Source of the DNA: Alphaproteobacteria bacterium UBA3612
GTDB lineage: Bacteria > Pseudomonadota > Alphaproteobacteria > Sphingomonadales > Sphingomonadaceae
DNA length: 64,000 nt
Assembly (NCBI GenBank): GCA_002375465.1
Contig: DFLT01000002.1
Coordinates: 48,389-112,388 of the forward strand
Direction of reading: 5' to 3'
Part shown: piece after piece, positions 49,132 to 64,000 of the stretch
How the letters are laid out: each line of letters begins with the position of its first letter
Numbering within the stretch: the stretch's first letter is position 1
The notes under the pieces: model-generated
What the model saw: only the letters and a program-made list of their open reading frames with translations
Database searches by the model: none
What the model was told of the DNA's origin: nothing
Program-made: the position numbers and the translations under genes

Positions 49132-52026
49132 TCAAATCGCAATCCCCCGCCCTCGCCCGAGATCAAGGCCATGATGAAACACGAGCTCGCCGCTAAGCGA
49201 GCGACCGCTGCCGGTGCTGATACCCAGCTCGACTTTGCGATTGGCGAGGAGCGATTCAAGCTGGGGGTCGCGCTGAAGGCTCTTAGCCATACTCGCCATC
49301 TCAGACCGAGTTGAGCGGTAGCTGCTCATCTCCCCGTGCGCGTAATTGTACTGGCTCTTTCGCTCAAGCTTTTGCCAGCGGGCAACAAACTGGTCGGCTC
49401 GCTCCTGCCCAGTTTCCCGAATTTTCTGCTCGGCCTTCATGGCAAGGATGGCACGACGCACCCGTCCACTTGCGGCTTCGTGCGCGAGCGGTTGATCTGC
49501 GAGGTAGGCACGCTCGATATCGCGTGAATAGTTTGCGCCAAACGCGTCCAACTTCTTGCGCGCTGCTGCCAGCTCTTGCATCTCAGGCGCCAAGCGGCCC
49601 TGCTCGACGCAATGATCGAGTGTCTTGCCATTTTCTTGCGCCAGGAACACATTTCTGACAGCCTGGGCGTGACGTCGGACAGCCGCCTGTGCCCTGACCT
49701 GGCGATCTGGCTTGGGCGATTGCGAGACCCGCTGCCCGTCAAACATACCGCGCACCTTATCGGGAACCTTGCGGACGATCTTGGCAACCCGTTCGCGGAC
49801 GCCGATGCCGCGCCGCTCGGCATATCGCTTCTCGATGCCTTCGTTCCGACCATAATCGGAAACCATGTCCTTGGCGCGTTCGCGGGACAGAGTGCGGGCG
49901 AGCTTATCGACGTCTGCGAAGTCATCCCTGCCGTAATGCAGCGAGAGGGACTCGCGATGTCGCGACAGCGCAACGTAGCTGCTATGCTGGTCCATTCCCG
50001 GCGTGGAGAGAACGTGGGTGCGATCCACGGTCACACCCTGCGATTTGTGAACGGTCGCGGCGTAACCGTGGTCGATATGGGCATAGTCCTTCGTGTCGAA
50101 CGCGACGTTTCGACCATCATCGAGCAACACGGCCATGCGTTGCGCGCTGACCGATTGCACCGTGCTGAGGCTCCCGTTCTTGACGCCAAGCTCGCGGTCG
50201 TTGCGCAGGAACATCAACCGGTCGCCGGTCGCGAACTGTCTCGTGCCGCGCTCGGCATTGATCGAAACGTCTTCGCCCAGCGCGCCGTCCTCGCGCAGCC
50301 TGCCGCGCGCCAGCTCATTGAGCGCGCGAACCTCATCGTTGGTGTGCGTGAGAATGATGCGTGACTGAGCGGGTTGTGCGGCGCGTTCGCGATTCCAGCC
50401 CTCGATCAGTTCCTCGCGCGCAGCGTCGCGCGTCTCGGCAACATGCACCATGCCGTTTGCCGAATATGCGTCCAATGCCTCGGCGGTGCGGCCCGTTGCC
50501 AGATGGCGCGTGGCATCTCGCTGCCAGTCCTCGCGCTGCCGCCGCACCTCGGTGATCTCGACTCCCCCATGGCGCTCGTGAATGGCACGAAACGCCGCGC
50601 CCGCTTCGATCGCCTGCAGCTGCTGCGGATCGCCGACCAGAACGATCTTGGCTGCGGCATCATTTGCAACAGACAGAACCCGCTGCATCTGGCGCGTACC
50701 GACCATGCCAGCCTCGTCGATGACCAGCACATCACGCGAGGTAAGCAACTCGCGTCCCTCGCTCCACTGGTGCTCAAGGCTGGCAATGGTGCGTGAGGCA
50801 ATACCCGAGCCGTTCTCGAGACTTTCGGCAGCGATACCCGAGAGCGCCGCGCCGCGAACATTGTAGCCCGCGCTCTCCCAGGCGTCGCGCGCCACACCCA
50901 GCATCGCACTCTTGCCGGTCCCGGCGTAGCCAACGACAACGCCCAGATCCTTGCCAGCCGTAGCATGCTCAAAGGCCACTCGCTGCTCGCCTGAAAGAAC
51001 CAGACCTCGCTGCTCGGCGGCGGCAAGCGCGCGGTCGCGGAAACGTTCGTGAACGCGGTGTCGATCGCGTTCGGCGATCGACGCGGTAGCGCGTTCCAAT
51101 CTCGCTTCCACCTCGATCATGTCGCGCGATGTGAAGCGTTCGTTGCCGCGACCATCCTTGCCCAGCGCAACCAGATCAGGCGAGGACTGCACCGCACTCA
51201 ACGCGCGATCAAACTGGTCCTTTCCATCCGAGTGACGGTGCACGAACCTCGCAAGGTCGCGGCGGGTAAAGGTCGCCTGGCCCTTTGTGATCGCGTCGAG
51301 GGCAATGTCGGGGTTGGCGATGATCCGCTCGCCATTCTCGCGGGCGATGGCGTGATTCTCGATCAGCCGGTCGGCCTCGGGGCCCATGCGCAGTGAGGGC
51401 GCACCGATCTTGGTCTGCGGCTCCAGCTCAATCCCCTGCGCCTCCAGACTGCGATGATCGATCCGCGCATCGATATCGAGCTCAGCCAGCCGCTCGTTGA
51501 CATGGTCGGCCCAGCGCTCGCGCCATGTCTCGATCAGCTCGGTGCGGTTCCAGTCGCGCACCTTCTTGCCGAACCCGTCTTCGCCCACCTCGCGCATGGA
51601 GAGCATGACATGGGCATGCGGCTTGGCGAGGCCGTCCGCGCCGATATCCCAGTGCACATTGAGGTCGGCGATCATCCCGCGTTCCACAAACTCGGATCGC
51701 ACAAAGTCCCGGGCGAGCTCTATGCCCTGCTGCTGGTCCAGTTCTCGCGGAATGGCGAACTCAATCTCGCGCGAGAGCTGCGCGTCCTTGCGCAGTTCGG
51801 TCGCCTCGACTTCGTTCCACAGGGTCGAGCGGTCGCCCAGCCGTTCGGGCGCACCCTCGGCCAGCAACACTTCGGAATGGACGACGCCGGCCTTGTTGGT
51901 GAAGTCATGCGAACGATCGAGGCGGTCATCGTGGAGCCGTCCTGCTGAACGGTAGGCGGCAGAGGCCACCGCGCTCGATCCGGCGCTGCGGGAAATGACT
52001 TTTGCCGAGAAATGGTAGATCGCCAT
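49132..52026 (-). CDS. traA: Ti-type conjugative relaxase TraA (MobA/MobL relaxase + RecD-like helicase)
   Basis: ATG at 52026 gives MAIYHFSAKVISRSAGSSAVASAAYRS, the MOBQ relaxase N-terminus. The HxDxxxPHxH-type motif is NVHWDIGADGLAKPHAHVM. The Walker A motif is GYAGTGKS. Confidence 0.93.
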   Translation of the reverse strand: MAIYHFSAKVISRSAGSSAVASAAYRSAGRLHDDRLDRSHDFTNKAGVVHSEVLLAEGAPERLGDRSTLWNEVEATELRKDAQLSREIEFAIPRELDQQQGIELARDFVRSEFVERGMIADLNVHWDIGADGLAKPHAHVMLSMREVGEDGFGKKVRDWNRTELIETWRERWADHVNERLAELDIDARIDHRSLEAQGIELEPQTKIGAPSLRMGPEADRLIENHAIARENGERIIANPDIALDAITKGQATFTRRDLARFVHRHSDGKDQFDRALSAVQSSPDLVALGKDGRGNERFTSRDMIEVEARLERATASIAERDRHRVHERFRDRALAAAEQRGLVLSGEQRVAFEHATAGKDLGVVVGYAGTGKSAMLGVARDAWESAGYNVRGAALSGIAAESLENGSGIASRTIASLEHQWSEGRELLTSRDVLVIDEAGMVGTRQMQRVLSVANDAAAKIVLVGDPQQLQAIEAGAAFRAIHERHGGVEITEVRRQREDWQRDATRHLATGRTAEALDAYSANGMVHVAETRDAAREELIEGWNRERAAQPAQSRIILTHTNDEVRALNELARGRLREDGALGEDVSINAERGTRQFATGDRLMFLRNDRELGVKNGSLSTVQSVSAQRMAVLLDDGRNVAFDTKDYAHIDHGYAATVHKSQGVTVDRTHVLSTPGMDQHSSYVALSRHRESLSLHYGRDDFADVDKLARTLSRERAKDMVSDYGRNEGIEKRYAERRGIGVRERVAKIVRKVPDKVRGMFDGQRVSQSPKPDRQVRAQAAVRRHAQAVRNVFLAQENGKTLDHCVEQGRLAPEMQELAAARKKLDAFGANYSRDIERAYLADQPLAHEAASGRVRRAILAMKAEQKIRETGQERADQFVARWQKLERKSQYNYAHGEMSSYRSTRSEMASMAKSLQRDPQLESLLANRKVELGISTGSGRSLSGELVFHHGLDLGRGRGIAI

Positions 52027-52052
52027 GGCGGCAATCCAGTTACGGCAAACAA

Positions 52053-52085
52053 GCGACGTCGGCACGACGTATAAGCGCGCCCTCA
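52053..52085 (+). other. oriT (MOBQ/RSF1010-type: inverted repeat followed by a nick-region consensus)
   Basis: The hairpin ACGTCG-GCA-CGACGT (52056-52070) is directly followed by ATAAGCGCGCCCTCA, which compares with RSF1010 TAAGTGCGCCCT. It lies in the traA/traC-like divergent intergenic region. Confidence 0.7.
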
Positions 52086-52197
52086 CATGATAAAATCCTG
52101 TTCGGGACCGGGCCGTGCCAGCCCGTCTCGGCAACATTGCAGCAATCGGAGGCGGGCCGCTTTAGGATGATCTCATCACAAAATGATGGAGAAAATC

Positions 52198-52744: not shown

Positions 52745-52792
52745 CGCGATTACGGGGTGCAGGTCGACAACGGCTTTGCTAGGCTCAAACAA

Positions 52793-53734
52793 ATGCGCAC
52801 CGACCTCGAACATCTTCCCCCGCAAAAGCAGCGCGAGATCGAGCGCGTGGTGCAGCTGATCTTCGAAGAGTTCAACGACGCCTTCGCGCTGGCCAAGCAC
52901 GATTGGAAAAAAGCCGGGCGCATTCTCAAAGTCATTCTCTACGGTAGCTATGCGCGCGGGACCTGGATCGATGAACCGCATACGGCCAAAGGGTACCAAT
53001 CGGACTATGATCTGCTCATAGTCGTCAACGCCAAGCGGCTGACTGATAGAGTCAAGTACTGGGCCAAGCTCGATGACCGGTTGATGCGCGAGTACGGTGT
53101 GACTGGTACGCTCAAGACGCCGGTCAATTTTATCGTCCACACGCTGCAGGAAGTGAACGACGGGCTCGCTCATGGGCGCTACTTCTTCATGGACGTGAAG
53201 GATGACGGCGTCGCGCTCTACCAGTTCGATGACACCGAGCTGCACACGCCCAAGCCCAAGACGGCGCCGCAGGCGCTGGCGATGGCACGGGAATACTTTG
53301 AAGACTGGATGCCCAGCGCGTCAGATTTCTTTGATGGGTATGTCGACGCCAAAGCGCGCGGGAAATTCAAGAAGGCCGTCTTTGATTTGCACCAATCTGC
53401 AGAGCGAATGTACCATACCGCGCTTCTCGTCTGCACATTCTACACGCCACACGTGCACAATCTTGGCTTCCTGCGCACCCAAGCCGAGCGCATCGATGCG
53501 CGCCTGACATACGTATGGCCGCGAGACACCAAGCGTGACCGCGCGCGCTTCGAGAAGCTCAAGGACGCCTATGTCAAAGCGCGCTACTCAAAGCACTACC
53601 GTATTACCAAGGACGAGCTCGAATGGCTCGGAACTCAAGTCGAGGAGCTCGGCCGCGTTGTGCACGAAGTCTGCTCCGAACGGATCGATAAGCTCAATGC
53701 TGACGCGAAGGCCAAGCCTGACAAGGTTCGGTGA
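52793..53734 (+). CDS. Fused nucleotidyltransferase (MNT-like) + HEPN domain protein
   Basis: NTase motif YGSYARG...SDYDLLIV in the N-terminal half. The helical C-terminal half reads as HEPN-like (DLHQSAERMYHTALL...KARYSKHY). Confidence 0.75.
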   Translation: MRTDLEHLPPQKQREIERVVQLIFEEFNDAFALAKHDWKKAGRILKVILYGSYARGTWIDEPHTAKGYQSDYDLLIVVNAKRLTDRVKYWAKLDDRLMREYGVTGTLKTPVNFIVHTLQEVNDGLAHGRYFFMDVKDDGVALYQFDDTELHTPKPKTAPQALAMAREYFEDWMPSASDFFDGYVDAKARGKFKKAVFDLHQSAERMYHTALLVCTFYTPHVHNLGFLRTQAERIDARLTYVWPRDTKRDRARFEKLKDAYVKARYSKHYRITKDELEWLGTQVEELGRVVHEVCSERIDKLNADAKAKPDKVR

Positions 53735-54669: not shown

Positions 54670-55722
54670 CTACTTTTCAGCATTCAACCACTCTTCGAGT
54701 GCTGTGATGTCCGCCAAAAGCTCGGCGAATGTTGGCGGCTCCCGCATGAACATTACGGCCATTGCGTCGTAGTCCCGCTTGAGGTCATCGGCGATTGCAT
54801 CTGGGGGAGATAGCCGCAGTGAGCCGAGAAGCGCCGTTTCATAGGAGGCCGACTTGTCTGCAAACATCAGGCTTTTGTTCCGCACGACATTGGCCAGCAG
54901 CTCCGGCTGTCTCATCGCCTCTCGGTCGATGCCAGCACGCGTGAGCATCAAGGTGTCGTAGTAATGTCGCGACATACCATCGCGAAGCTTGCCGCTGTGG
55001 TACAGCATGTGAAGGATCGTCACCTTTTCCCAGAAAGTACGGGTCGCCGCCAAGGTCGGAATTTCGGCGATCGCGTCCGGCAACTCGTCAGGAAATTCGG
55101 CGGCCAGATAGGGTGTGATTGTCTTTAGTTCTGACGGCTCTGTGTCGCCGCGCGCGCCGAATTCGAGCTTGATGCGTGGCTTGATGTAGCCTCCGTCGGC
55201 ACCGCCACCATAGTCGTTGCCGTAGTTCAGGCCGTAGCCGGATGTTTGCGGGTAATTGAACAGCAGCGTCTGACGATCATTGTCGTCAGGGTCGAGTTCG
55301 AGGCTCCAACCATCGGGAGTCCCCAGCGCGGCTTCGATTTCCCTGGCGAGCACTGGCATGATGTCCTTGGCAACATAGCCTTGCGCCGCTTCCTTGAGCG
55401 CCTTGGTCCTACGTTGTCGCTCTTTGCCGCTTATCCCGTCCTCCATCGGCGAGTTCACCTCACTAACGCGCGGCGCGCCTTTGCTGATGGTAAGATCGAT
55501 GTCTTCCGAGAAGCGGTGAATGATGTCGTAAGCCTTGGAGAGCGAAGTCCCGCCTTTAAACATCAGATGACCGTTTAGCTCTTCGCAAGTCATGAGCCGT
55601 CGCAGCGTCCAACACACCCAGAAGTCTTTCTCGATGATCGTTGGCGTCAGGTCGCGCCTGCTGGCAGCTTCCTCAATGAAGGCGCGGCGGTCTGCGACGT
55701 CCCTGCGGGCGAACTCATCCAT
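54670..55722 (-). CDS. abiEii: AbiEii/AbiGii-family nucleotidyltransferase toxin (type IV TA / abortive infection)
   Basis: EKDFWVCWTLRRL...FKGGTSLSKAYDIIHRFSEDIDLT is the DUF1814/AbiEii signature. 350 aa. Confidence 0.9.
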   Translation of the reverse strand: MDEFARRDVADRRAFIEEAASRRDLTPTIIEKDFWVCWTLRRLMTCEELNGHLMFKGGTSLSKAYDIIHRFSEDIDLTISKGAPRVSEVNSPMEDGISGKERQRRTKALKEAAQGYVAKDIMPVLAREIEAALGTPDGWSLELDPDDNDRQTLLFNYPQTSGYGLNYGNDYGGGADGGYIKPRIKLEFGARGDTEPSELKTITPYLAAEFPDELPDAIAEIPTLAATRTFWEKVTILHMLYHSGKLRDGMSRHYYDTLMLTRAGIDREAMRQPELLANVVRNKSLMFADKSASYETALLGSLRLSPPDAIADDLKRDYDAMAVMFMREPPTFAELLADITALEEWLNAEK

Positions 55723-56323
55723 GACGGGCCTCCGCGATCCGCAGCACGACGTCGCCCATCCATCCGGTCATCTGTGGACGCGCATTAATCAGGGCCTTCA
55801 TATCGGCGTCGCCCAACCTGTCCGCAAACTGATGGATAATGTCGCTGTCCATACCGTCCTTCCCGATATGCGCCATGGCCTGAAGCACTGTGTTGGCTTG
55901 GTTGGATGCTTTATCGAGTAGGGGCGCGCGCGCATGCTTGAGCGCCACAGTACGCCCCGCCACCTGTTTCGTACGCGTTGCGCCATCGGTGGCGTAGGAA
56001 GACTTCGCCGGAACCTGTGTGGAGAGGCCAAGGCGGTTTGCGGCCGCTGCCCCTGCGGGTCCGATCCTGTCGCCGCTCTTGCTTGCAAGAGCGCGGGCAA
56101 GACTGTCTGGGTCAGGGCTGAGCGCTCCCAGCTTGTCATGCAGTCTGGGGTAATCGTAAATGCCGCGTCCGACACGACGAATCTGGCCAGATTTGGCGAG
56201 ACGCGATAGAGCCATGTCGACCGAACCGCGCGTGCCGAAGTCGATGAAGTCTTTGGGCGTAAAGGCCCAGCCACGGCCCTTGCCGCGCACACGCTTCATG
56301 ATTCTGTCGATCATAGCAGCCAT
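55715..56323 (-). CDS. abiEi: AbiEi-family antitoxin/transcriptional regulator
   Basis: F.PKDFIDFGTRGSVDMALSRLAKSGQIRRVGRGIYDYP is a winged-helix AbiEi N-terminus. It has an 8-nt overlap with abiEii. Confidence 0.85.
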   Translation of the reverse strand: MAAMIDRIMKRVRGKGRGWAFTPKDFIDFGTRGSVDMALSRLAKSGQIRRVGRGIYDYPRLHDKLGALSPDPDSLARALASKSGDRIGPAGAAAANRLGLSTQVPAKSSYATDGATRTKQVAGRTVALKHARAPLLDKASNQANTVLQAMAHIGKDGMDSDIIHQFADRLGDADMKALINARPQMTGWMGDVVLRIAEARHG

Positions 56324-56967: not shown

Positions 56968-57783
56968 ATGGCAATAGCGGGCACTTCACGGAAGCGCTGG
57001 AGCGAAGAGGAAACGGTGCTTGCGCTGTATCTCTATTTCCAGCTGCCGTTCGGAAAGCTGCACTCGGGCAATCCGGAGATCCAGGAACTCGCCGCTGCGC
57101 TCGGGCGCACGAACAGTTCGGTCGCGATGAAGCTGTGCAACTTCGCCAGCCTCGATCCCAAGATCACCGACAGCGGGCGCAAAGGTCTGGACGGTGCCTC
57201 GAAGCTGGATCGCGCAACCTATGCGGAGTTTGGCCAAGACTGGACCGATCTCGTATCGCGAGCGGAAGGCCTATGGACCACGCAGTTAGGCCAGTTCGAA
57301 CCGCCACCCTCCCCGACGGGCCTAAATGAGAAATATAGCGAATTCCGGTTCGAGCCCTATCAAGGCGAGTCTACCACGCAGGCCCTCGTCAACCAGCGCA
57401 TCGGCCAGGACTTCTTTCGCCGCGCCGTGCTCGCCAATTACGAAGAGACCTGCTGCATCACCGGTATCGCCGATCCGCGCTTACTCACCGCGAGCCACAT
57501 CAAGCCATGGGGCAAAGACAGTGAGAACCGGCACAACCCCGCCAATGGCCTCCTACTGTCAGCGACACTCGACCGCGCCTTTGATCGCGGGCTTATCACG
57601 GTCGACCGCCAACGGAATATTCGCGTCTCGCGGCAACTGCGCGAAAGCCAGAGCCGCGAGACGCGCGACTATTTTGAGCAATTCGAGACGGCGACTTTGC
57701 GTTCAGCGATCCGGTTCGATCCCGAACCGGCGTTTCTCGACTGGCACAACGAACACTGCTTCGTGGATCAACGCGCCGCCTGA
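56968..57783 (+). CDS. HNH endonuclease (HNH_2/PF13391-type putative restriction endonuclease)
   Basis: CCITGIADPRLLTASHIKPW...NPANGLLLSATLDRAFDRGLITVD is the HNH_2 core. The N-terminal region is RWSEEETVLALYLYFQLPFGK. Confidence 0.85.
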   Translation: MAIAGTSRKRWSEEETVLALYLYFQLPFGKLHSGNPEIQELAAALGRTNSSVAMKLCNFASLDPKITDSGRKGLDGASKLDRATYAEFGQDWTDLVSRAEGLWTTQLGQFEPPPSPTGLNEKYSEFRFEPYQGESTTQALVNQRIGQDFFRRAVLANYEETCCITGIADPRLLTASHIKPWGKDSENRHNPANGLLLSATLDRAFDRGLITVDRQRNIRVSRQLRESQSRETRDYFEQFETATLRSAIRFDPEPAFLDWHNEHCFVDQRAA

Positions 57784-57824: not shown

Positions 57825-58208
57825 TCAATATTCGCTGGATAGCATGATGGTCAGCACCCGCCGTGTCACAGCGGGATTGGCCGGGTCCTCGCTGCCGAAC
57901 CGCAAATCGCAGTCGTAAGCATCGATCTTCCAGAACACGGTTTCGGCAGGCCGCGCCGGTCGCGTGGTCGTCCAACGGCCATCGCCATCTTGATAGATCG
58001 CCCCGAAATCGCGCTCACCATAAGCATCATTGTCCGGCGTGAAGGCGTCGAATGTCTCGACCAGTTCGCGCACCCGCGACTGATCCGCTTCGGGCAAGGT
58101 CCGGAAACCCTCGGTCATCACCGCAACGCAAGCCAGGCCCATCGCCTGTCGCGCCCGATCGTTAAGCCGAGCAATCCGTTCGCTGCGGGAAAGTGAAACG
58201 GTAGTCAT
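57825..58208 (-). CDS. DUF3768 domain protein
   Basis: ATG at 58208. RIARLNDRARQAMG...FTPDNDAYGERDFGAI......VFWKIDAYD fits the DUF3768 pattern. Confidence 0.8.
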   Translation of the reverse strand: MTTVSLSRSERIARLNDRARQAMGLACVAVMTEGFRTLPEADQSRVRELVETFDAFTPDNDAYGERDFGAIYQDGDGRWTTTRPARPAETVFWKIDAYDCDLRFGSEDPANPAVTRRVLTIMLSSEY

Positions 58209-58393
58209 TGCACCGCCCTCCCGCCGCTTTCGCACAAATGGACCAGTTTGCCGAAATCCTGCTTCGCGCCCAGTTTCTCCGCCAGACGCTGCACTGCCCC
58301 GAACGGCAACCCGTTCTCATTTGCCAGCATCCGCCACCAGTCCTCGCGGCACTCGGCCCCGCAGGCGTGGTAGTTCAACATCAAATCACCCAT
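58205..58393 (-). CDS. Small hypothetical protein (62 aa) translationally coupled to the DUF3768 gene
   Basis: ATG at 58393 is preceded by GGAGGAGAG. Its stop overlaps the DUF3768 start (ATGA). No family recognised. Confidence 0.45.
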   Translation of the reverse strand: MGDLMLNYHACGAECREDWWRMLANENGLPFGAVQRLAEKLGAKQDFGKLVHLCESGGRAVQ

Positions 58394-58982
58394 CTTCTGC
58401 TCTCCTCCGGCTGAAAGCCGCACTGCCTGCGGCATGCGGCTCTGCCTTCCGGCGAGGATGGGAGGGGGAGGGAAAACCGGAACCGATGCCTTGGCGCGGG
58501 CCAGCGGGCGAAGCCCGCCACACGGGGGTATCTGTTCCGGTTTGGGAACGAGAGGGCAAAGCCCCTGGCGTTCCCTCCAAAGAAGTGCTGCGCCGGCAGG
58601 CGCCACCCCAAGCCGCGTCAGCGGCTCACAGAAACGGTGCCCTCGCACGGCGCGACGCAGACGGGCGATGTGTCGGCAAGCCGAGGGCGCGGCAAGGCTG
58701 TTGCATCGCAGATGCAGCGCCGCTGACGCAAGCGAGCACGCAGCCGGCGCGCGCCCGGCAAGAAGAGAGGCGAGAGCCCCAGCGGGTCAGATACAAAACG
58801 CCGCGCCCGCAGGAGTGCAAAGCGCGGGACCGAGCGCGTCCTCAACTACGCCCGCTCAACATCCCTCCTGCTCCCGATCGTCACCCGGATGGGCCGGGAC
58901 TACAGGCCCGGTCCGCGCCAGCGGATAGAGCGGGTCGCCCGCAGGGCAGCACCCAATCTTTCGCCTGAACTCAATGTTGGCC

Positions 58983-60734
58983 TCAACCCTTCTCCACGTC
59001 CAACACCGCCTTGATACGCACTCTGAGGCGCTCGCGCCGATCGGCATGGAACATCTCAAATCCCTCAATAGTTTCGGGAATGTCGCCAAGATCATGCATC
59101 GCACAATAATGCGTCCTGTCTCCAGCGTTGGGATAGTGCGTCGCAAGCCACTTAGCAGGCAGAGCATCACGCTTTTCCGTGTTTGCGGTCCCTTCAAGCA
59201 ACTGCAAATTGGGCAGCTCATTTGCCATTCGGGCAAGCTCTTCAATTTTGTCTTCGGTGACCCCCGCTTTCCGCAGCTTGGCGGTGGTGAAGCGGGAAAT
59301 CGGGAACACATGGTCCATATGGAACTGGTTGCGAAGATTGACGAAGGGGAACAACATCGACAGCAGGGCGAACATCCGCTTGTCGCCATATTGAAGGGAA
59401 AGCATATCTTCGACTTCTGCCGGTGAGAACGTGAGTGACTTTCCGCGGGCATCCATAACTTGTTCGAGTTCTCGCGCAGGGAAGGACTCATTGCCCTTCT
59501 GCTGGATCACCTCGCGCAGGGCAGTCAGCAGAGTATCAAGCCCGCTGCCCCAAATGCCCGACGCCTTGAGCAACGACCGGATCAGCCAAGAATGGATAGT
59601 CTCCCTGTCAGCGGCGAACTGGTTGCTGACACTGTAATTCGCGGGCGCTTTGCGGTGATAAAGGTAATATGCGATCGGCAGCAGCGCGCTGTCCGCGCGC
59701 AGAGTTTGTCCATTCAGGCCGAAGCTTGCGGCCAGTTCTACAGTCCGGACCAAGGCAGCGCGGATTTGCGGCCAGTTGGATTCCAGCTTTTCCATGTTGG
59801 CCTGGGTGAAGTTCTCGACCTTAAACCCGACGCTCGCGATGTCGGAGAGCATGAGGCCAGCCTTCAAAACGAAATCTTGGCTGAGAGTAAACCCGGTCCC
59901 AATCCGGTTGATCTCATCAACCAAACTATGGATCTCCGAACGAGCATCCACCTTTTTCCACTGCGCGACAGCGATGCTCAGCAGCAGGTCAGAGTAAGAG
60001 AGAATTGTGCCTCCGGAATTGAGGCGAATGAAGATGTTGAGCACCCGCTCTACATCCTGCGCCTCCTCTTCATAGTAGTACATCAGCTGGTTAGTCTTCA
60101 CGACGTGGTAGAGCTTGGTCAGCATCCGGAATGCCGATTTGAACTGCTCGCCAGAAAGTCCGGCATCGACCAGCCAGTCGTTGAGGTCGGTCACATCGTT
60201 GACGGCCATTATGTCTGGAACATTATACCAGAACGCTTCCTCGCTGCGCTCGACCTGAGCATCGTCGAGAAACCGGAAATCATACACGATCCCGTCCTCA
60301 TCGGGCTCCAGTGATGCAAGTAGGTTGAGCCTAAGCGTCCTCTTGGGAAAGGCGTCGGGGTTGGTCCACCACTTGCTCGGCAGTTTCATTGCCATGGAGC
60401 CGCGCAGCCCAATGTTAAGCGCCGTAAGTCGCTGCTGACCATCGAGAACGGCGGTGACGGTCTGGTCGTGCAATGTCGGTAGTTCAGGGCAATGAGCGGC
60501 GTCGCGCTGATGGTAGTGCAGCACGAAATCGTAGAACTTGAAGTTCCCGCTGGTCTCCGGCTTCACCGTCCAGAACAAGAAAGTTCCAAAGGGATAGCCC
60601 TGCATTAGACTGTCGAACAGCCGTTCGATCTGCTCAGGCTTCCATACGAATTCGCGCTGGATTGCAGGAAGCACGTATGACTTGCGCTGGATCTTCTCTA
60701 GCGCGGCGGCGATCGTGCCCCCTGGTTTATACAC
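58983..60734 (-). CDS. GmrSD-like DUF262 (ParB-like NTPase) + DUF1524 (His-Me finger nuclease) protein; candidate type IV restriction enzyme
   Basis: N-terminal IQREFVWKPEQIERLFDSLMQGYPFGTF and VLDGQQRLTAL (DUF262). C-terminal HMDHVFPIS...NLQLLEGTANTEK (DUF1524). GTG start with AGGAG 9 nt upstream. Confidence 0.88.
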   Translation of the reverse strand: MYKPGGTIAAALEKIQRKSYVLPAIQREFVWKPEQIERLFDSLMQGYPFGTFLFWTVKPETSGNFKFYDFVLHYHQRDAAHCPELPTLHDQTVTAVLDGQQRLTALNIGLRGSMAMKLPSKWWTNPDAFPKRTLRLNLLASLEPDEDGIVYDFRFLDDAQVERSEEAFWYNVPDIMAVNDVTDLNDWLVDAGLSGEQFKSAFRMLTKLYHVVKTNQLMYYYEEEAQDVERVLNIFIRLNSGGTILSYSDLLLSIAVAQWKKVDARSEIHSLVDEINRIGTGFTLSQDFVLKAGLMLSDIASVGFKVENFTQANMEKLESNWPQIRAALVRTVELAASFGLNGQTLRADSALLPIAYYLYHRKAPANYSVSNQFAADRETIHSWLIRSLLKASGIWGSGLDTLLTALREVIQQKGNESFPARELEQVMDARGKSLTFSPAEVEDMLSLQYGDKRMFALLSMLFPFVNLRNQFHMDHVFPISRFTTAKLRKAGVTEDKIEELARMANELPNLQLLEGTANTEKRDALPAKWLATHYPNAGDRTHYCAMHDLGDIPETIEGFEMFHADRRERLRVRIKAVLDVEKG

Positions 60735-60876: not shown

Positions 60877-62673
60877 TCACCTTGCGCCCTTAGCGGCGGG
60901 AAAAAGGCTTTCCATCTCCACCATCGCATTTTGAATAGCAGGCTCTGTGAGACCGAGCTTAGCAATCTTCGGATGCCATTCCGGGTCTTGGTCGATGTAA
61001 CTCAGAACCGCCTGCGAAGTGGGGTTTGTACCCTGGTGACTGAGCGCTAGCATTGCGTAATCGATTGTCGCCAGCAGCTCCCAGATGTCGTTCTGCTTGA
61101 ACTTGAATTTATCGCAAACCCATGCAGCGGCTTGGGCTAAGTCGTATTTGTCAATCCAGCTTTGCGCTTCGCCAATGGCTGCACCGGGAGAGTGCCCAGG
61201 CCCATACTTCCCGGACGCTGGAGTGATCCAGTTCTTGTCCAGCGCAACTTTCATGCCACCGGAATAGCGCATGGTTGGATTATACGGACCTGCCGCTTTG
61301 CGAAGATACTCGCCCTCCAGCGCGGTTTCGCCCAAGAACCTTCGCGCGAAATAGACGGCCTTCTGCAACCGGAAGTTTCCAAGCGGCTGTCCGCCCTCCT
61401 CATGAAGGGCCTTGATAATCGCAGCGACAAGCACGGCCTCCTTGAACGGAGTATCCACCGCACTAGAACTAGATCGAGCCTGGAGCGATACGACATTGTC
61501 GGTTTGCTGAACGGGTGCTGCCGAGGCGGAAGATTGTTTCTCGAAAATCTGATGCAACATGGCGGGAAGCAATGCGTCGGCTTCCTTTGCCGTTTCTGTT
61601 CGAATCGAGCGGATTTCTGCTGCGAGTTCGCAAAGCTTGTCAAAGCCAAGTTGTGCGTCAAGAGAGGGGACTGGAACAGTGATGGCCATCAATGGCTTTT
61701 GGCCTAATGTCCTATTCCGGTCAGCGCTGCCGGGCGACGCTTGATTGATCTTCCTTAGACCAATTCGCGACTGGAGGTAAAACCACAAAAAGTTCGCTGT
61801 TGCGGCATCGCGATGCGGCACACAGGTGAGGTAGCGGTGTGATCCCACTCGAAGATGATCTTTCGCGGTCGCCACTCCGAACGCGCCTTCCCACGCCTTA
61901 ATATTGCTGAAAACAAGATCACCAGCGTGGACCCAGAACAGCTTTTGCCATGTAATTTCTGAGCCGAACAATACCGGTTTATGGAAAAGTCCACGCCCAA
62001 ATGAACGAGCACCAAGCTCGGGATATTCTCCGTCAAGCTCGATCTCAACGGGTCGACGCACCAAGGGCGCGACTTCACCCAGTGGGCGGTAGTCTGCACC
62101 TTCCACGATCTTGCGGAACGCGTTTTGCAACATGGCCTCGATGTCGCACTCAATCGCCTCAAGTTCCTTCGCCCGCTCCTGTAACTGCGCCTCCACATCA
62201 TTTAGCCGCTGCGCGATCACGCGCTGTTCGTCTAGCGGGGGAAGCGGGATTTCGAGTTCAAGAAAGCGCCCCTCTTTGAGCCTTACTCGGTTGGTGCTGC
62301 CAGCGCTGGATTGCTTACACAACGCAACAAAGGCTTCAGTCTTCGTATACCATTTCAAATAGCTGGGTGCCAACGCCTCCTCATCGATCTTGAAACAAGG
62401 GAAATCATTGCTGACCAAAGCGTCGTTTAGCTCGGCAGGCACCAAACCGAACGCTCCATGCCGGGCGTCAATCTTCGAAATAACAAAATCGCCGGTCTGC
62501 GCAGCGATCTGACGAGTTGCTGAGATTTCAGCGCCATCGCAAACACCTCGCAAAATAAGGCCTTTGCCCCAGAGCCGAACCGTAATTTGCTTGTACGATT
62601 GCCCCGGCTCTATCTGCTTATGATTGGAAGATTGGACCAAGACATCTCCCAATGGAACTGACTTCCAAGTCAC
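60877..62673 (-). CDS. hsdS: Type I restriction-modification specificity subunit HsdS with an extra ~200-aa C-terminal domain
   Basis: Two target-recognition domains are separated by conserved helices (LPPLDEQRVIAQRLNDVEAQL... and VPSLDAQLGFDKLCELAAEI...LLPAMLHQIF). These are followed by a Ser/Ala linker and a further domain. The GTGA overlap links it to hsdM. Confidence 0.9.
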   Translation of the reverse strand: MTWKSVPLGDVLVQSSNHKQIEPGQSYKQITVRLWGKGLILRGVCDGAEISATRQIAAQTGDFVISKIDARHGAFGLVPAELNDALVSNDFPCFKIDEEALAPSYLKWYTKTEAFVALCKQSSAGSTNRVRLKEGRFLELEIPLPPLDEQRVIAQRLNDVEAQLQERAKELEAIECDIEAMLQNAFRKIVEGADYRPLGEVAPLVRRPVEIELDGEYPELGARSFGRGLFHKPVLFGSEITWQKLFWVHAGDLVFSNIKAWEGAFGVATAKDHLRVGSHRYLTCVPHRDAATANFLWFYLQSRIGLRKINQASPGSADRNRTLGQKPLMAITVPVPSLDAQLGFDKLCELAAEIRSIRTETAKEADALLPAMLHQIFEKQSSASAAPVQQTDNVVSLQARSSSSAVDTPFKEAVLVAAIIKALHEEGGQPLGNFRLQKAVYFARRFLGETALEGEYLRKAAGPYNPTMRYSGGMKVALDKNWITPASGKYGPGHSPGAAIGEAQSWIDKYDLAQAAAWVCDKFKFKQNDIWELLATIDYAMLALSHQGTNPTSQAVLSYIDQDPEWHPKIAKLGLTEPAIQNAMVEMESLFPAAKGAR

Positions 62674-64000
62674 CGCGCGAGCTCCGTCAGCGTGCGCTTG
62701 ATGTCGCTCACGATCCCTGAAATCCGCTCTTCTTTTTCTGAAATGCTCTCCACGATCTGCAATGGTGTGCGATGATCAATCACACCGCCCGCATTGGGAT
62801 TTTTCTGATCTAGATTGCAGGCAATGACACGGCCTGCCTCATCGGTTTCGATCAGATCAGTGCCCTTGATCTTCCACGCCTGCTCATTGGTGGCTCTGGC
62901 AGTCCACCAACCCAGACACGGCTGCAATTCCGCTGAAGTCAGCGGGGCAGTCTTGGAATACTTCTTCCGGCCTTCAGGCTTCGGCTGTTCGTAATACCAG
63001 ATATCGTTCGTGGCTTTGGCGGTATCGAAGAAGATCACATTGGTTGGAATATCCGTATACGGCGCGAACACACCTTCAGGCAGGCGCAGCACGGTGTGCA
63101 GATTGAATTCGCGGATCAAGTCCGCCTTGATCCGGGCGGCAATGCCGGTGCCAAACAGCACACCATGCGGAACAACAACGGCGGCCTTGCCTTTCCCGCG
63201 CCGTTTCAGCCGGCGCATGATCATTTGCAAGAACAGTAGCGCGGTTTCAGCTGTCCGGCGATCTTCGGGAAAGTTGTTAAGGATCCCGGTTTCCTCCTCG
63301 CCGCCAAAGGGCGGGTTAGACAGAATCACTTCAAAGCGGTCAGCCTCTCCAATTTCTGCCAGACGCGTACTGAGCGAATTGCCCGGATCGATCTGCGGCG
63401 CATCCAGCCCGTGCAGGAGCAAATTCATCTGCGCTAACAGGAAGGGAAGCGATTTGGCTTCCCCGCCGAAAATGCTGCTTTCCTGTAAGGTCTTGCGCTT
63501 CTCCACCGTATTGGCCTGATCGGCCATATGGGTGAAGGCTTCGGTCAGAAATCCGCCAGTACCACATGCCGGATCGAGAACTTTCTCACCAATCTTCGGA
63601 TCGGTAACTTGGACCATGAAACGAACGATCGGACGCGGAGTGTAGAATTCTCCGCTGTCACCCGCTGCATCACGCATTTCGCGCAGTAAGGTTTCGTAGA
63701 GGCGCCCGAGTGTGTGGACTTCCTCAGATGAATCAAAATGAATGCCGTGAACGAGGTTGATAACGTCGCGTAGCAAATATCCGCTTTCCATGCGATTGGT
63801 GAGCCCACGAAACACGGTTGCGACAACATCCTTCCTGTCGCGTTTGCCGTTATCTCCGCGCAGGCCTTTGAGGTAGGCGAATAGGCCCGGCCCCGTGGAA
63901 TCGTCCGGAAGTTCTGTTTCCTCGGCCGTCAGAAAGTGAAGCAGATCTGGACCCGTTATGCCCGCTTCGTCCGCTGCCCAATCCCTCCAGCGATAAGGCG
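62670..64000 (-). CDS. hsdM: Type I restriction-modification DNA methyltransferase HsdM (N6-adenine); 5' end beyond the window
   Basis: DPACGTGGFL (SAM motif I) and NPPFGG (motif IV). The frame stays open upstream of the tracked GTG to base 64000. Confidence 0.93.
   Translation of the reverse strand, partial: PYRWRDWAADEAGITGPDLLHFLTAEETELPDDSTGPGLFAYLKGLRGDNGKRDRKDVVATVFRGLTNRMESGYLLRDVINLVHGIHFDSSEEVHTLGRLYETLLREMRDAAGDSGEFYTPRPIVRFMVQVTDPKIGEKVLDPACGTGGFLTEAFTHMADQANTVEKRKTLQESSIFGGEAKSLPFLLAQMNLLLHGLDAPQIDPGNSLSTRLAEIGEADRFEVILSNPPFGGEEETGILNNFPEDRRTAETALLFLQMIMRRLKRRGKGKAAVVVPHGVLFGTGIAARIKADLIREFNLHTVLRLPEGVFAPYTDIPTNVIFFDTAKATNDIWYYEQPKPEGRKKYSKTAPLTSAELQPCLGWWTARATNEQAWKIKGTDLIETDEAGRVIACNLDQKNPNAGGVIDHRTPLQIVESISEKEERISGIVSDIKRTLTELAR

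Follow-up and report, generated by a model that had tools for sequence, protein, structure and literature searches.

The type I restriction-modification (RM) system near the end of a 64,000-nucleotide stretch of Alphaproteobacteria bacterium UBA3612 (contig DFLT01000002.1; this whole stretch is called the window) encodes a specificity subunit, HsdS, with an additional domain at its C-terminus. The open reading frame (ORF) at 60877..62673 on the minus strand encodes a true specificity subunit of a type I RM system, joined by a flexible linker of ~26 residues to a folded C-terminal domain of ~190 residues, which we call the tail. The tail is a member of the superfamily formed by the DarG C-terminal domain (CTD) and Panacea domains. 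Its nearest relative is the DarG CTD and not Pfam's DUF4065, and it constitutes a family of its own outside Pfam. The HsdS-tail fusion is an old, selected, and widespread architecture. HsdS, the DarG CTD, and Panacea are all known; what is new is a real, widespread, and unannotated accessory domain on a classical enzyme.

The ORF has a GTG start and encodes 598 amino acids (aa) plus a stop in an uninterrupted frame. Residues 1-380 (61534..62673, minus strand) are the HsdS core, consisting of the first target recognition domain (TRD1), the first conserved helical region (CR1), TRD2, and CR2, and ending with ...LLPAMLHQIFEKQ. The PADLOC Specificity_I profile PDLC03141 matches aa 2-378 with its positions 3-379 of 382 (E 8.5e-110), and PF01420 is also found in the core (E 6.7e-11). 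With two TRDs, two conserved helical regions, and a match to the S-subunit profile over its full length, the core is an HsdS. In these features, in the coupling to hsdM, and in TRD swapping it is like the canonical HsdS of EcoKI, EcoR124I, and M. jannaschii. While canonical HsdS ends at the CR2 helix, 218 extra residues follow here. They begin with the linker SSASAAPVQQTDNVVSLQARSSSSAV (aa 381-406; 61456..61533, minus strand), which is rich in Ser and Ala and of low complexity, and continue with the tail (aa 407-598; 60880..61455, minus strand), which was characterized by AlphaFold2 (AF2), Foldseek, PADLOC profiles, hhalign, and dN/dS. The tail contains the central-helix motif GNFRLQKAVYFARR (aa 432-445; 61339..61380, minus strand), the counterpart of the Panacea KLQKLLYFAQR helix, and the motif KAAGPYNP (aa 459-466; 61276..61299, minus strand), the counterpart of the Panacea W.HGPV.P motif.

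Directly upstream is hsdM (62670..64000, minus strand), whose stop overlaps hsdS by 4 nucleotides (nt). It encodes a type I N6-adenine methyltransferase (Pfam N6_Mtase, E 1.4e-62; PADLOC MTase_I, E 1.2e-139) and is incomplete, with its frame open to 63998 at the window end. The hsdR gene lies beyond the window; it precedes hsdM in L001, a relative with 92% identity. An identical 598-aa protein is present on two independent Logan contigs. The 90% cluster of the window protein includes WP_348336559.1, whose public label is "restriction endonuclease subunit S [Roseibium sp.]"; public records carry no annotation of the tail.

The tail was assigned to the DarG-CTD/Panacea superfamily because of its matches to DarG profiles, a structural match that it has in common with a Panacea model, a profile alignment that scores above shuffled controls, and the reported homology between DUF4065 proteins and the DarG CTD (PMC13621843). 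The PADLOC DarG profile PDLC02990 matches the tail with positions 166-305 of 329 (E 1.4e-5), which is the C-terminal DarT-binding part. The NCBIfam DarG equivalog NF048014 matches with positions 170-317 of 338 (E 0.0044), scoring 16 bits where the cut-off is 250 bits, and is the sole match of the tail in NCBIfam. These matches cover ~150 tail residues and, at the level of sequence profiles, show homology to DarG in this domain alone. An AF2 model of the tail built on a 102-sequence alignment reached a predicted local distance difference test (pLDDT) score of 91 and a predicted TM-score (pTM) of 0.88. When it was compared by Foldseek with 350,542 PDB chains, the single meaningful match was 7yk3_B, the DarG CTD in the DarT-DarG complex (probability 1.00, TM 0.55), with 16% identity in the structural alignment. 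PDB sequence searches with the tail alone and with a tail-only profile gave no matches. The profile of the full homologue alignment, which contained HsdS columns, found HsdS structures only.

The tail is thus like the DarG CTD (7YK3 chain B) in structure and also in being fused C-terminally to the protective component of a DNA-targeting conflict system. It is unlike DarG in that the similarity is remote and that its N-terminal partner is not a macrodomain: HsdS occupies aa 1-380, and the scans gave no Macro domain. The toxin is missing as well. No Pfam match to DarT/DUF4433 was obtained among the scanned ORFs at 43-64 kb of the window, and DarT is absent from the annotated recurrent neighbour clusters of 80 tail loci, in which singleton neighbours were scanned in part.

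The relationship to Panacea was examined with gp27 of Listeria phage B025 as the reference seed. This protein contains ...EMKLQKLIYLAQRQ...GWKHGPVVPELRYF..., and 47 homologues were collected with it, all of which have PF13274. In hhalign, the tail profile and the 47-protein PF13274 profile align over 43-45 columns, in which RLQKAVYFARR...KAAGPYNP is placed on KLQKLLYFAQR...WKHGPVVP, and the C-terminal halves stay unaligned. The score is 32.2 (P ~3e-4; HH probability 36-39%), compared with a mean of 13.4 (standard deviation 2.6, maximum 22.4) for 150 column shuffles and 11.9 for the reversed profile. The tail has the conserved Panacea core, which is the central helix KLQKLLYFAQ and the GPV motif in a small β-sheet. 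It is reported that the GPV motif is functionally important in PanA (PMC8832971). When a genuine Panacea protein (P0252) was modelled by AF2 (pLDDT 90.5), its top PDB match was again 7yk3_B (probability 0.82, TM 0.35).

In having the central-helix motif [KR]LQK..Y[FL]A.R and a GP-containing motif, the tail is like the Panacea/DUF4065 proteins PanA and SocA. It differs from them in length (~190 aa versus ~120-165 aa), in being alignable over ~45 columns, in standing outside any conserved two-gene toxin-antitoxin module, and in failing the Pfam model. A Pfam scan of the tail gave nothing at E<=1, PF13274/DUF4065 included, so the gathering threshold of the DUF4065 model is not reached. None of the 102 tail homologues matched PF13274 at E<=0.1, and PF13274 is also absent from their precomputed Pfam labels.

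A prediction made earlier from the sequence alone (the original prediction) had described a complete HsdS with an in-frame C-terminal tail, a Ser/Ala-rich linker, and the two motifs, and all of these are present as described. It had put the end of HsdS near aa 392, which is 12 residues off the actual end at aa 380; its tail segment ended at 61497, inside the linker, and this has no consequence. It had also likened the tail to DUF4065/Panacea. This likeness stands at the superfamily level, where the DarG profiles, 7yk3_B, and hhalign agree, and it does not stand as a match to Pfam PF13274, by which the prediction itself had proposed to judge it.

Among viral proteins, similarity to the tail is sparse. 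The PHROGs scan gave one weak partial match (phrog_1281, E 0.022), and Foldseek against viral models gave one match, BFVD A0A5P9U4S0 (145 aa; probability 0.97, TMt 0.59). The size of A0A5P9U4S0 is compatible with a phage Panacea-type protein.

Unlike the DarG CTD, which is described as an acidic mimic of single-stranded DNA, the tails have isoelectric points (pI) between 5.0 and 10.0 (median 8.9). The tail in the window is slightly acidic at 6.5. The idea that the tail is a uniformly acidic DNA mimic was therefore rejected. A different idea, that the tail is a winged-helix-like domain which binds nucleic acid and either adds a DNA contact or autoregulates the operon, would agree with the median pI, with the mostly basic or aromatic nature of the invariant residues (see below), and with the arrangement of the N-terminal half (H-β-H-H...H-β-β), for which Foldseek gave weak partial matches to F-93, RTP, the MarR family, and ScpB. 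These structural matches are insignificant, however (E about 1 or worse), and neither the wide range of pI nor the value for the window's tail suits such a role. Since the characterized relatives of the tail bind proteins, we regard a nucleic-acid-binding tail as quite improbable.

The fusion is found far beyond the window. The original prediction had proposed to look for the same tail in other HsdS, and a profile search of 1.84 billion cluster representatives (50% identity) returned 612 proteins at E<=1e-3, 383 at E<=1e-10, and 135 at E<=1e-30. The top 150 matches are mostly 500-830 aa long, and in almost all of them the tail is at the extreme C-terminus. PF01420 was above the cut-off in seven of eight scanned matches longer than 500 aa and below it in the eighth, P0123. 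A motif-seeded scan with one genome per species found the tail in at least 194 species, which is a lower bound as exact motif patterns were used. The bacteria include Alphaproteobacteria, Planctomycetota, Bacillota, Nitrospirota, Bacteroidota, and Acidobacteriota; one archaeon and others also have the tail. In 73 of 80 species-level loci that were fetched, the tail ends a protein of at least 438 aa, and PF01420 lies upstream of the tail in all 73. The fusion occurs in two different type I families. Full-text literature searches turned up no description of an HsdS fused to a Panacea or DarG-CTD domain, in agreement with the original prediction, which knew of none.

The dN/dS of the tail is 0.07-0.11, so it is under strong purifying selection. 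In the alignment of 102 homologues, at ~30% identity, twelve columns are invariant; numbered as in the window protein, they are R435, K438, R445, A460-Y464 (AAGPY), a T.D pair, W566, and K569. As these polar and aromatic residues are invariant across phyla, it can be argued that the tail has one conserved ligand rather than many. The linkers of the homologues are 25-60 aa long, biased in composition, and poorly conserved. A stop or frameshift that makes the tail a separate ORF would have undone the fusion as first described, and neither is present in the window. The identical protein on two contigs, the 73 fused loci, and the low dN/dS show that the fusion is neither an artefact of sequencing nor an open frame that arose by chance.

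The same data bear on the idea that the tail is a functionless relic, for example of a DarG fragment that once lay downstream of hsdS and was fused to it by a deletion. Occasional in-frame stops do uncouple the tail from HsdS (see below). Against a relic are the dN/dS of ~0.1, the motifs that are invariant across phyla, and the hundreds of diverged clusters in which the domain is always intact, full-length, and in the same position. A relic is scarcely credible and is largely refuted by the selection data.

The tail is also found in association with HsdM. One of the 73 long tail proteins has HsdM_N and N6_Mtase in addition, which makes it an HsdM-HsdS-tail triple fusion; it is presumably the 1018-aa ORF of locus L026 that ends at ~10549. 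The PADLOC type I MTase_I profile PDLC03039 matches the tail with its positions 514-669 of 708 (E 2e-10), and this tail-like region in an HsdM profile suggests that HsdM-tail fusions exist. Since the domain is contained in PDLC03039 and the triple fusion exists, the domain is directed to the methyltransferase core; what it acts on presumably lies outside that core.

Short homologues of 205-290 aa were considered as a stand-alone family and rejected, as they are fragments that start inside the HsdS CR2 helix. Hidden Markov model searches run with --max together with regular expressions found no diverged tail paralogues or stand-alone Panacea genes in any of the fetched loci. No match was obtained when the tail was searched by tblastn in 72,556 plasmids and 50,697 phage records, or the locus by megablast in the plasmids. 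In three loci (L052, L058, and L075) the tail ORFs are 288-323 aa long and consist of a C-terminal HsdS fragment and the tail. They adjoin opposite-strand genes of ~375 aa and ~490-540 aa, which are common to all three, and the layout could be an invertible or silent hsdS cassette.

The closest relative of the window locus is the lineage of L001 (with L002-L008), which is on at least 24 contigs from several studies and has the gene order integrase-alpA-higBA-hsdR-hsdM-hsdS-tail. The window hsdM has 92% DNA identity to the complete hsdM of L001 (519 aa), and the same value is obtained for hsdM together with the first half of hsdS. By blastn, the CR2 end, the linker, and the tail are 90% identical. 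Between these parts, TRD2 (61560..62210, minus strand) is non-homologous to L001 in both the blastn and the protein comparison; it is replaced there by unrelated sequence, with breakpoints in CR1 and at the CR2 end. This pattern indicates a TRD swap by recombination that left the tail untouched. As TRD2 differs and the tail is kept, the tail belongs to the scaffold that stays constant when TRDs are swapped.

The L001 lineage differs from the window at the junction of HsdS and tail. An in-frame TAG, where the window has CAG, ends HsdS at ...HQIFEQ*, and the linker and the tail (96% identical in protein to that of the window) continue in frame behind it. The covalent link between HsdS and tail can therefore be lost in a successful lineage. 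Junction stops are found in three lineages: TAG at L001:7899-7901 (also in L002-L008), TAA at L041:9965-9967, and TAG at L069:9905-9907. In each of them the stop lies right before the linker, and the tail behind it is intact and in frame. In L069 the ORF upstream of the stop is unlike HsdS CR2. Programmed readthrough of the junction stop was rejected as a general idea, given that the three cases use TAG, TAA, and TAG.

The gene downstream of hsdS in the window (58983..60734, minus strand) encodes a GmrSD-family type IV restriction enzyme homologous to BrxU/HEC-05. It matches PADLOC HEC-05 (PDLC04151) over the full length with E 2.5e-227 and Pfam GmrSD_N with E 2.4e-30, in accordance with the original prediction, which had called it GmrSD-like. 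The prediction went on to propose that this nuclease is the partner of the tail, which would be a tethered antitoxin masking it on the RM complex as EcoprrI masks PrrC. Masking of PrrC is done by ordinary RM proteins, and no antitoxin-type domain on HsdS is known to be involved in it. The two genes in the window are on the same strand and 142 nt apart, no terminator-like site was found between them, and the tail does belong to a toxin-binding superfamily. On the other hand, HEC-05 is BrxU, a GmrSD-family type IV enzyme that is reported to defend alone, without an antitoxin (Payne et al. 2024), and the neighbour matches HEC-05/BrxU over its full length.

The L001 lineage is informative on this point. 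The window segment 59038-60864, nearly the whole BrxU gene, is absent from L001, where the flanks are joined directly. The tails being 96% identical, BrxU comes and goes without a change in the tail. The final ~55 nt of the BrxU gene (58983-59037) lie within sequence common to L001, which suggests that the difference arose by deletion in L001 rather than by insertion in the window. The loss of BrxU in L001 coincides with the stop that uncouples the tail; this is a single event and the one observation that can be read in favour of the proposed masking. Among the 80 other tail loci, GmrSD-type neighbours occur in only a few and are of a different subfamily, and 15 loci have no cargo at all. It is very improbable, therefore, that the tail masks the adjacent nuclease.

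A wider survey of neighbours was made with 82 non-redundant tail loci, a simple longest-ORF gene caller, and annotation of the recurrent clusters and a sample of the singleton genes. The original prediction had proposed to test whether the tail co-occurs with toxin-like neighbours. The sole consistent companions turned out to be hsdM, which is at -1 in 64 of the 82 loci, and hsdR, which lies no more than five genes away in 71; the downstream gene varies between closely related tails. The tail does not form a conserved toxin-antitoxin module of two genes, and in 15 loci hsdR follows it directly with nothing between. With no other consistent neighbours, the tail is genetically tied to hsdM and hsdR alone.

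Two layouts are found. In the alphaproteobacterial clade of the window the order is hsdR-hsdM-hsdS-tail followed by a variable same-strand gene, and the cargo can be, for example, HEC-08 (HEPN), HNH with DUF4145/DUF5655, an Abi_C-like gene with the PDC-S68 helicase, SIR2, a PRTase/RT retron-like pair, or, in the window, BrxU. In other phyla the order is hsdM-hsdS-tail-[0-4 genes]-hsdR-YgjP peptidase, and the inserts include SoFic, a Schlafen/HATPase_c_4 protein, GmrSD pairs, HNH with McrBC, Shedu, and a NucS-like nuclease. The YgjP-like/SprT-like metallopeptidase (PF01863, E 8e-64; ~235 aa) follows hsdR in 26 tail loci outside the window's clade, for example in L038.

Such variety raises the question of whether the tail is a promiscuous Panacea-type adaptor that neutralizes or licenses whatever effector is in the slot (HEPN, HNH, SIR2, Fic, GmrSD, and others), by which abortive or second-line effectors would be coupled to the state of the RM complex. 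The downstream genes are often translationally coupled to hsdS-tail, with gaps of -14 to 0 nt, the cargo is effector-like and hypervariable in a manner similar to the partner swapping of PanA (PMC8832971), and some tail subclades track one cargo. A control set allows this to be compared with the situation behind an HsdS without a tail. It consists of 80 metagenomic loci with HsdM 59-81% identical to the window type, of which 41 were evaluable; two of these have the tail and 39 lack it. A same-strand gene within 150 nt of hsdS is present in 29 of the 39 tail-less loci (74%) and in 18 of 26 loci of the tail-bearing clade (69%; Fisher p 0.78). The cargo of the tail-less controls is likewise hypervariable and defence-like (GIY-YIG/RAMA, Mrr_cat, TIR, DUF4062, and DEAD helicases). 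As the frequency is equal with and without the tail, the cargo slot goes with the RM family and does not depend on the tail.

Closely related tails lead to the same view. Of two loci with tails 88% identical, one has HNH and one HEC-08; for tails 94% identical, one locus has the Abi_C-like gene and the other has no cargo, just as BrxU is present in the window and absent from L001. In addition, many cargos are multi-gene and self-sufficient (McrBC, Shedu, and retron-like elements), hsdR takes the place directly after the tail in the 15 loci mentioned above, and the motifs are invariant whatever the cargo, which points to one common ligand. A general adaptor for the cargo is thus unlikely. The tail is independent of the cargo gene, the slot exists whether or not there is a tail, and the BrxU-like gene is one defence gene among many that can take each other's place in it. 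The tail is not an antitoxin dedicated to this nuclease. In having a second defence gene in an operon-like unit with a type I system, these loci are like PrrC-EcoprrI and the HEC systems (Payne et al. 2024). They are unlike PrrC-EcoprrI in that, by the comparative data, the cargo slot is independent of the tail.

It is quite possible that the tail is intrinsic to the RM system and concerns HsdR or its control. It would be a regulatory or sensory accessory of the type I enzyme itself, attached by its tether to the M2S methyltransferase core, and could serve as a brake, as an assembly or licensing device, or as a switch that responds to a cue. The likeliest target would be HsdR, the dangerous subunit of the system itself, or else a cue by which HsdR is controlled. 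HsdR is the most plausible target because it is the only toxic component that is always present. That HsdR is the binding partner, and that restriction is affected, we infer with low confidence. DarG may serve as a model: as reported (PMC11481870, citing Deep 2023), its CTD binds DarT and occludes the DNA site of the toxin, and its macrodomain reverses the damage. By analogy, the RM system may combine enzymatic protection, here by methylation, with a brake or switch that acts on restriction directly at the protein level, as DarG pairs a macrodomain with its CTD. We suggest tentatively a dual-mode system of the DarTG type, in which the methyltransferase core protects DNA enzymatically and the domain tethered to HsdS (to HsdM elsewhere) binds and gates HsdR, or senses a phage cue that releases HsdR.

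A related possibility is that the tail acts mainly as a sensor or decoy, which detects a phage cue such as an anti-restriction protein, or recruits a host factor in the manner of a protease adaptor (SocA-like), and so switches restriction or its alleviation. In multidomain antitoxins Panacea has been proposed to be primarily a sensor, though it can neutralize toxins directly where it stands alone (Ernits et al., PMC10440598), and SocA acts as a proteolytic adaptor (PMC8832971). Conserved surface-type residues on a flexible tether would fit the recruitment of a trans-acting factor, and a YgjP/M48-type peptidase is encoded after hsdR in the 26 loci noted above. This peptidase, however, does not occur in the window's clade, and type I loci in general often have it, among them the island of enteropathogenic Escherichia coli (EPEC) discussed below. 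The proposal is purely analogical and unlikely.

Several points weigh against a tail that gates HsdR. Most of the same RM family does without the tail (39 of the 41 control loci), so it is not needed for basic function, and the L001 lineage, with its in-frame TAG before the tail and its R, M, and S intact, is abundant in metagenomes. Panacea can swap toxin partners by few mutations (PMC8832971), so that a tail may bind its cargo despite the turnover. Some tail subclades do track one cargo, namely the clade with the Abi_C-like gene and PDC-S68 and the one with the SIR2 pair. Finally, Ernits et al. (PMC10440598) argue for Panacea as often a sensor rather than a neutralizer.

A known locus resembles those with the tail. 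The EPEC RptR-RMS-DarTG-M48 island is similar in layout to the tail loci outside Alphaproteobacteria (hsdM-hsdS-[insert]-hsdR-metallopeptidase), and in both a DarG-CTD-type domain is encoded right after hsdS. It is reported that DarTG2 lies between hsdS and hsdR in loci of like layout (PMC12255303). While the EPEC island has a separate DarG with its own DarT, the domain described here is covalently attached to HsdS, and DarT and the macrodomain are absent. The EPEC layout suggests, by analogy, how a DarG-CTD-type domain and hsdS may have been joined; the divergence is too great to claim a recent event.

The RM locus of the window lies in a mobilisable defence island, as a relaxase-helicase and defence ORFs adjoin it. 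These include the MobA/MobL relaxase-helicase of 1001 aa (49132-52137, minus strand), a nucleotidyltransferase-HEPN fusion (SMODS/Polbeta and HEPN; 52757-53734, plus strand), an HNH_2 endonuclease (56968-57783, plus strand), and a DUF3768 protein (57825-58235, minus strand). A few kb downstream of the RM locus lies an overlapping type IV toxin-antitoxin pair (54670-56323, minus strand), made up of an AbiEi-like antitoxin of 202 aa (DUF6088/AbiEi_4) and a 350-aa nucleotidyltransferase toxin, AbiEii. The L001 relatives have an integrase, AlpA, and HigBA in place of the mobilisable island genes. Between the two lineages, 58184-59037 of the window and L001:8564-9408 are 90% identical, with 68% G+C and long overlapping ORFs on both strands. 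A small conserved ORF in this segment (58205-58648, minus strand) ends with ...MLANENGLPFGAVQRLAEKLG....

Type I restriction enzymes endanger their own host, and how they are restrained is understood in few families, for example in EcoKI, where HsdR is degraded by ClpXP. A conserved and selected domain of a toxin-binding or sensor superfamily, which hundreds of lineages keep tethered to the methyltransferase core, is a candidate for a new layer of control. The DarG-CTD/Panacea superfamily extends past two-gene toxin-antitoxin modules into restriction-modification, and a sizeable domain family is missing from Pfam, its members being labelled in public merely as "restriction endonuclease subunit S". 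The comparison of loci also corrects the guilt-by-adjacency inference on the GmrSD/BrxU neighbour. If the dual-mode reading is true, the tail would be a built-in, protein-level switch for the alleviation or activation of restriction, for which type I enzymes offer no known parallel.

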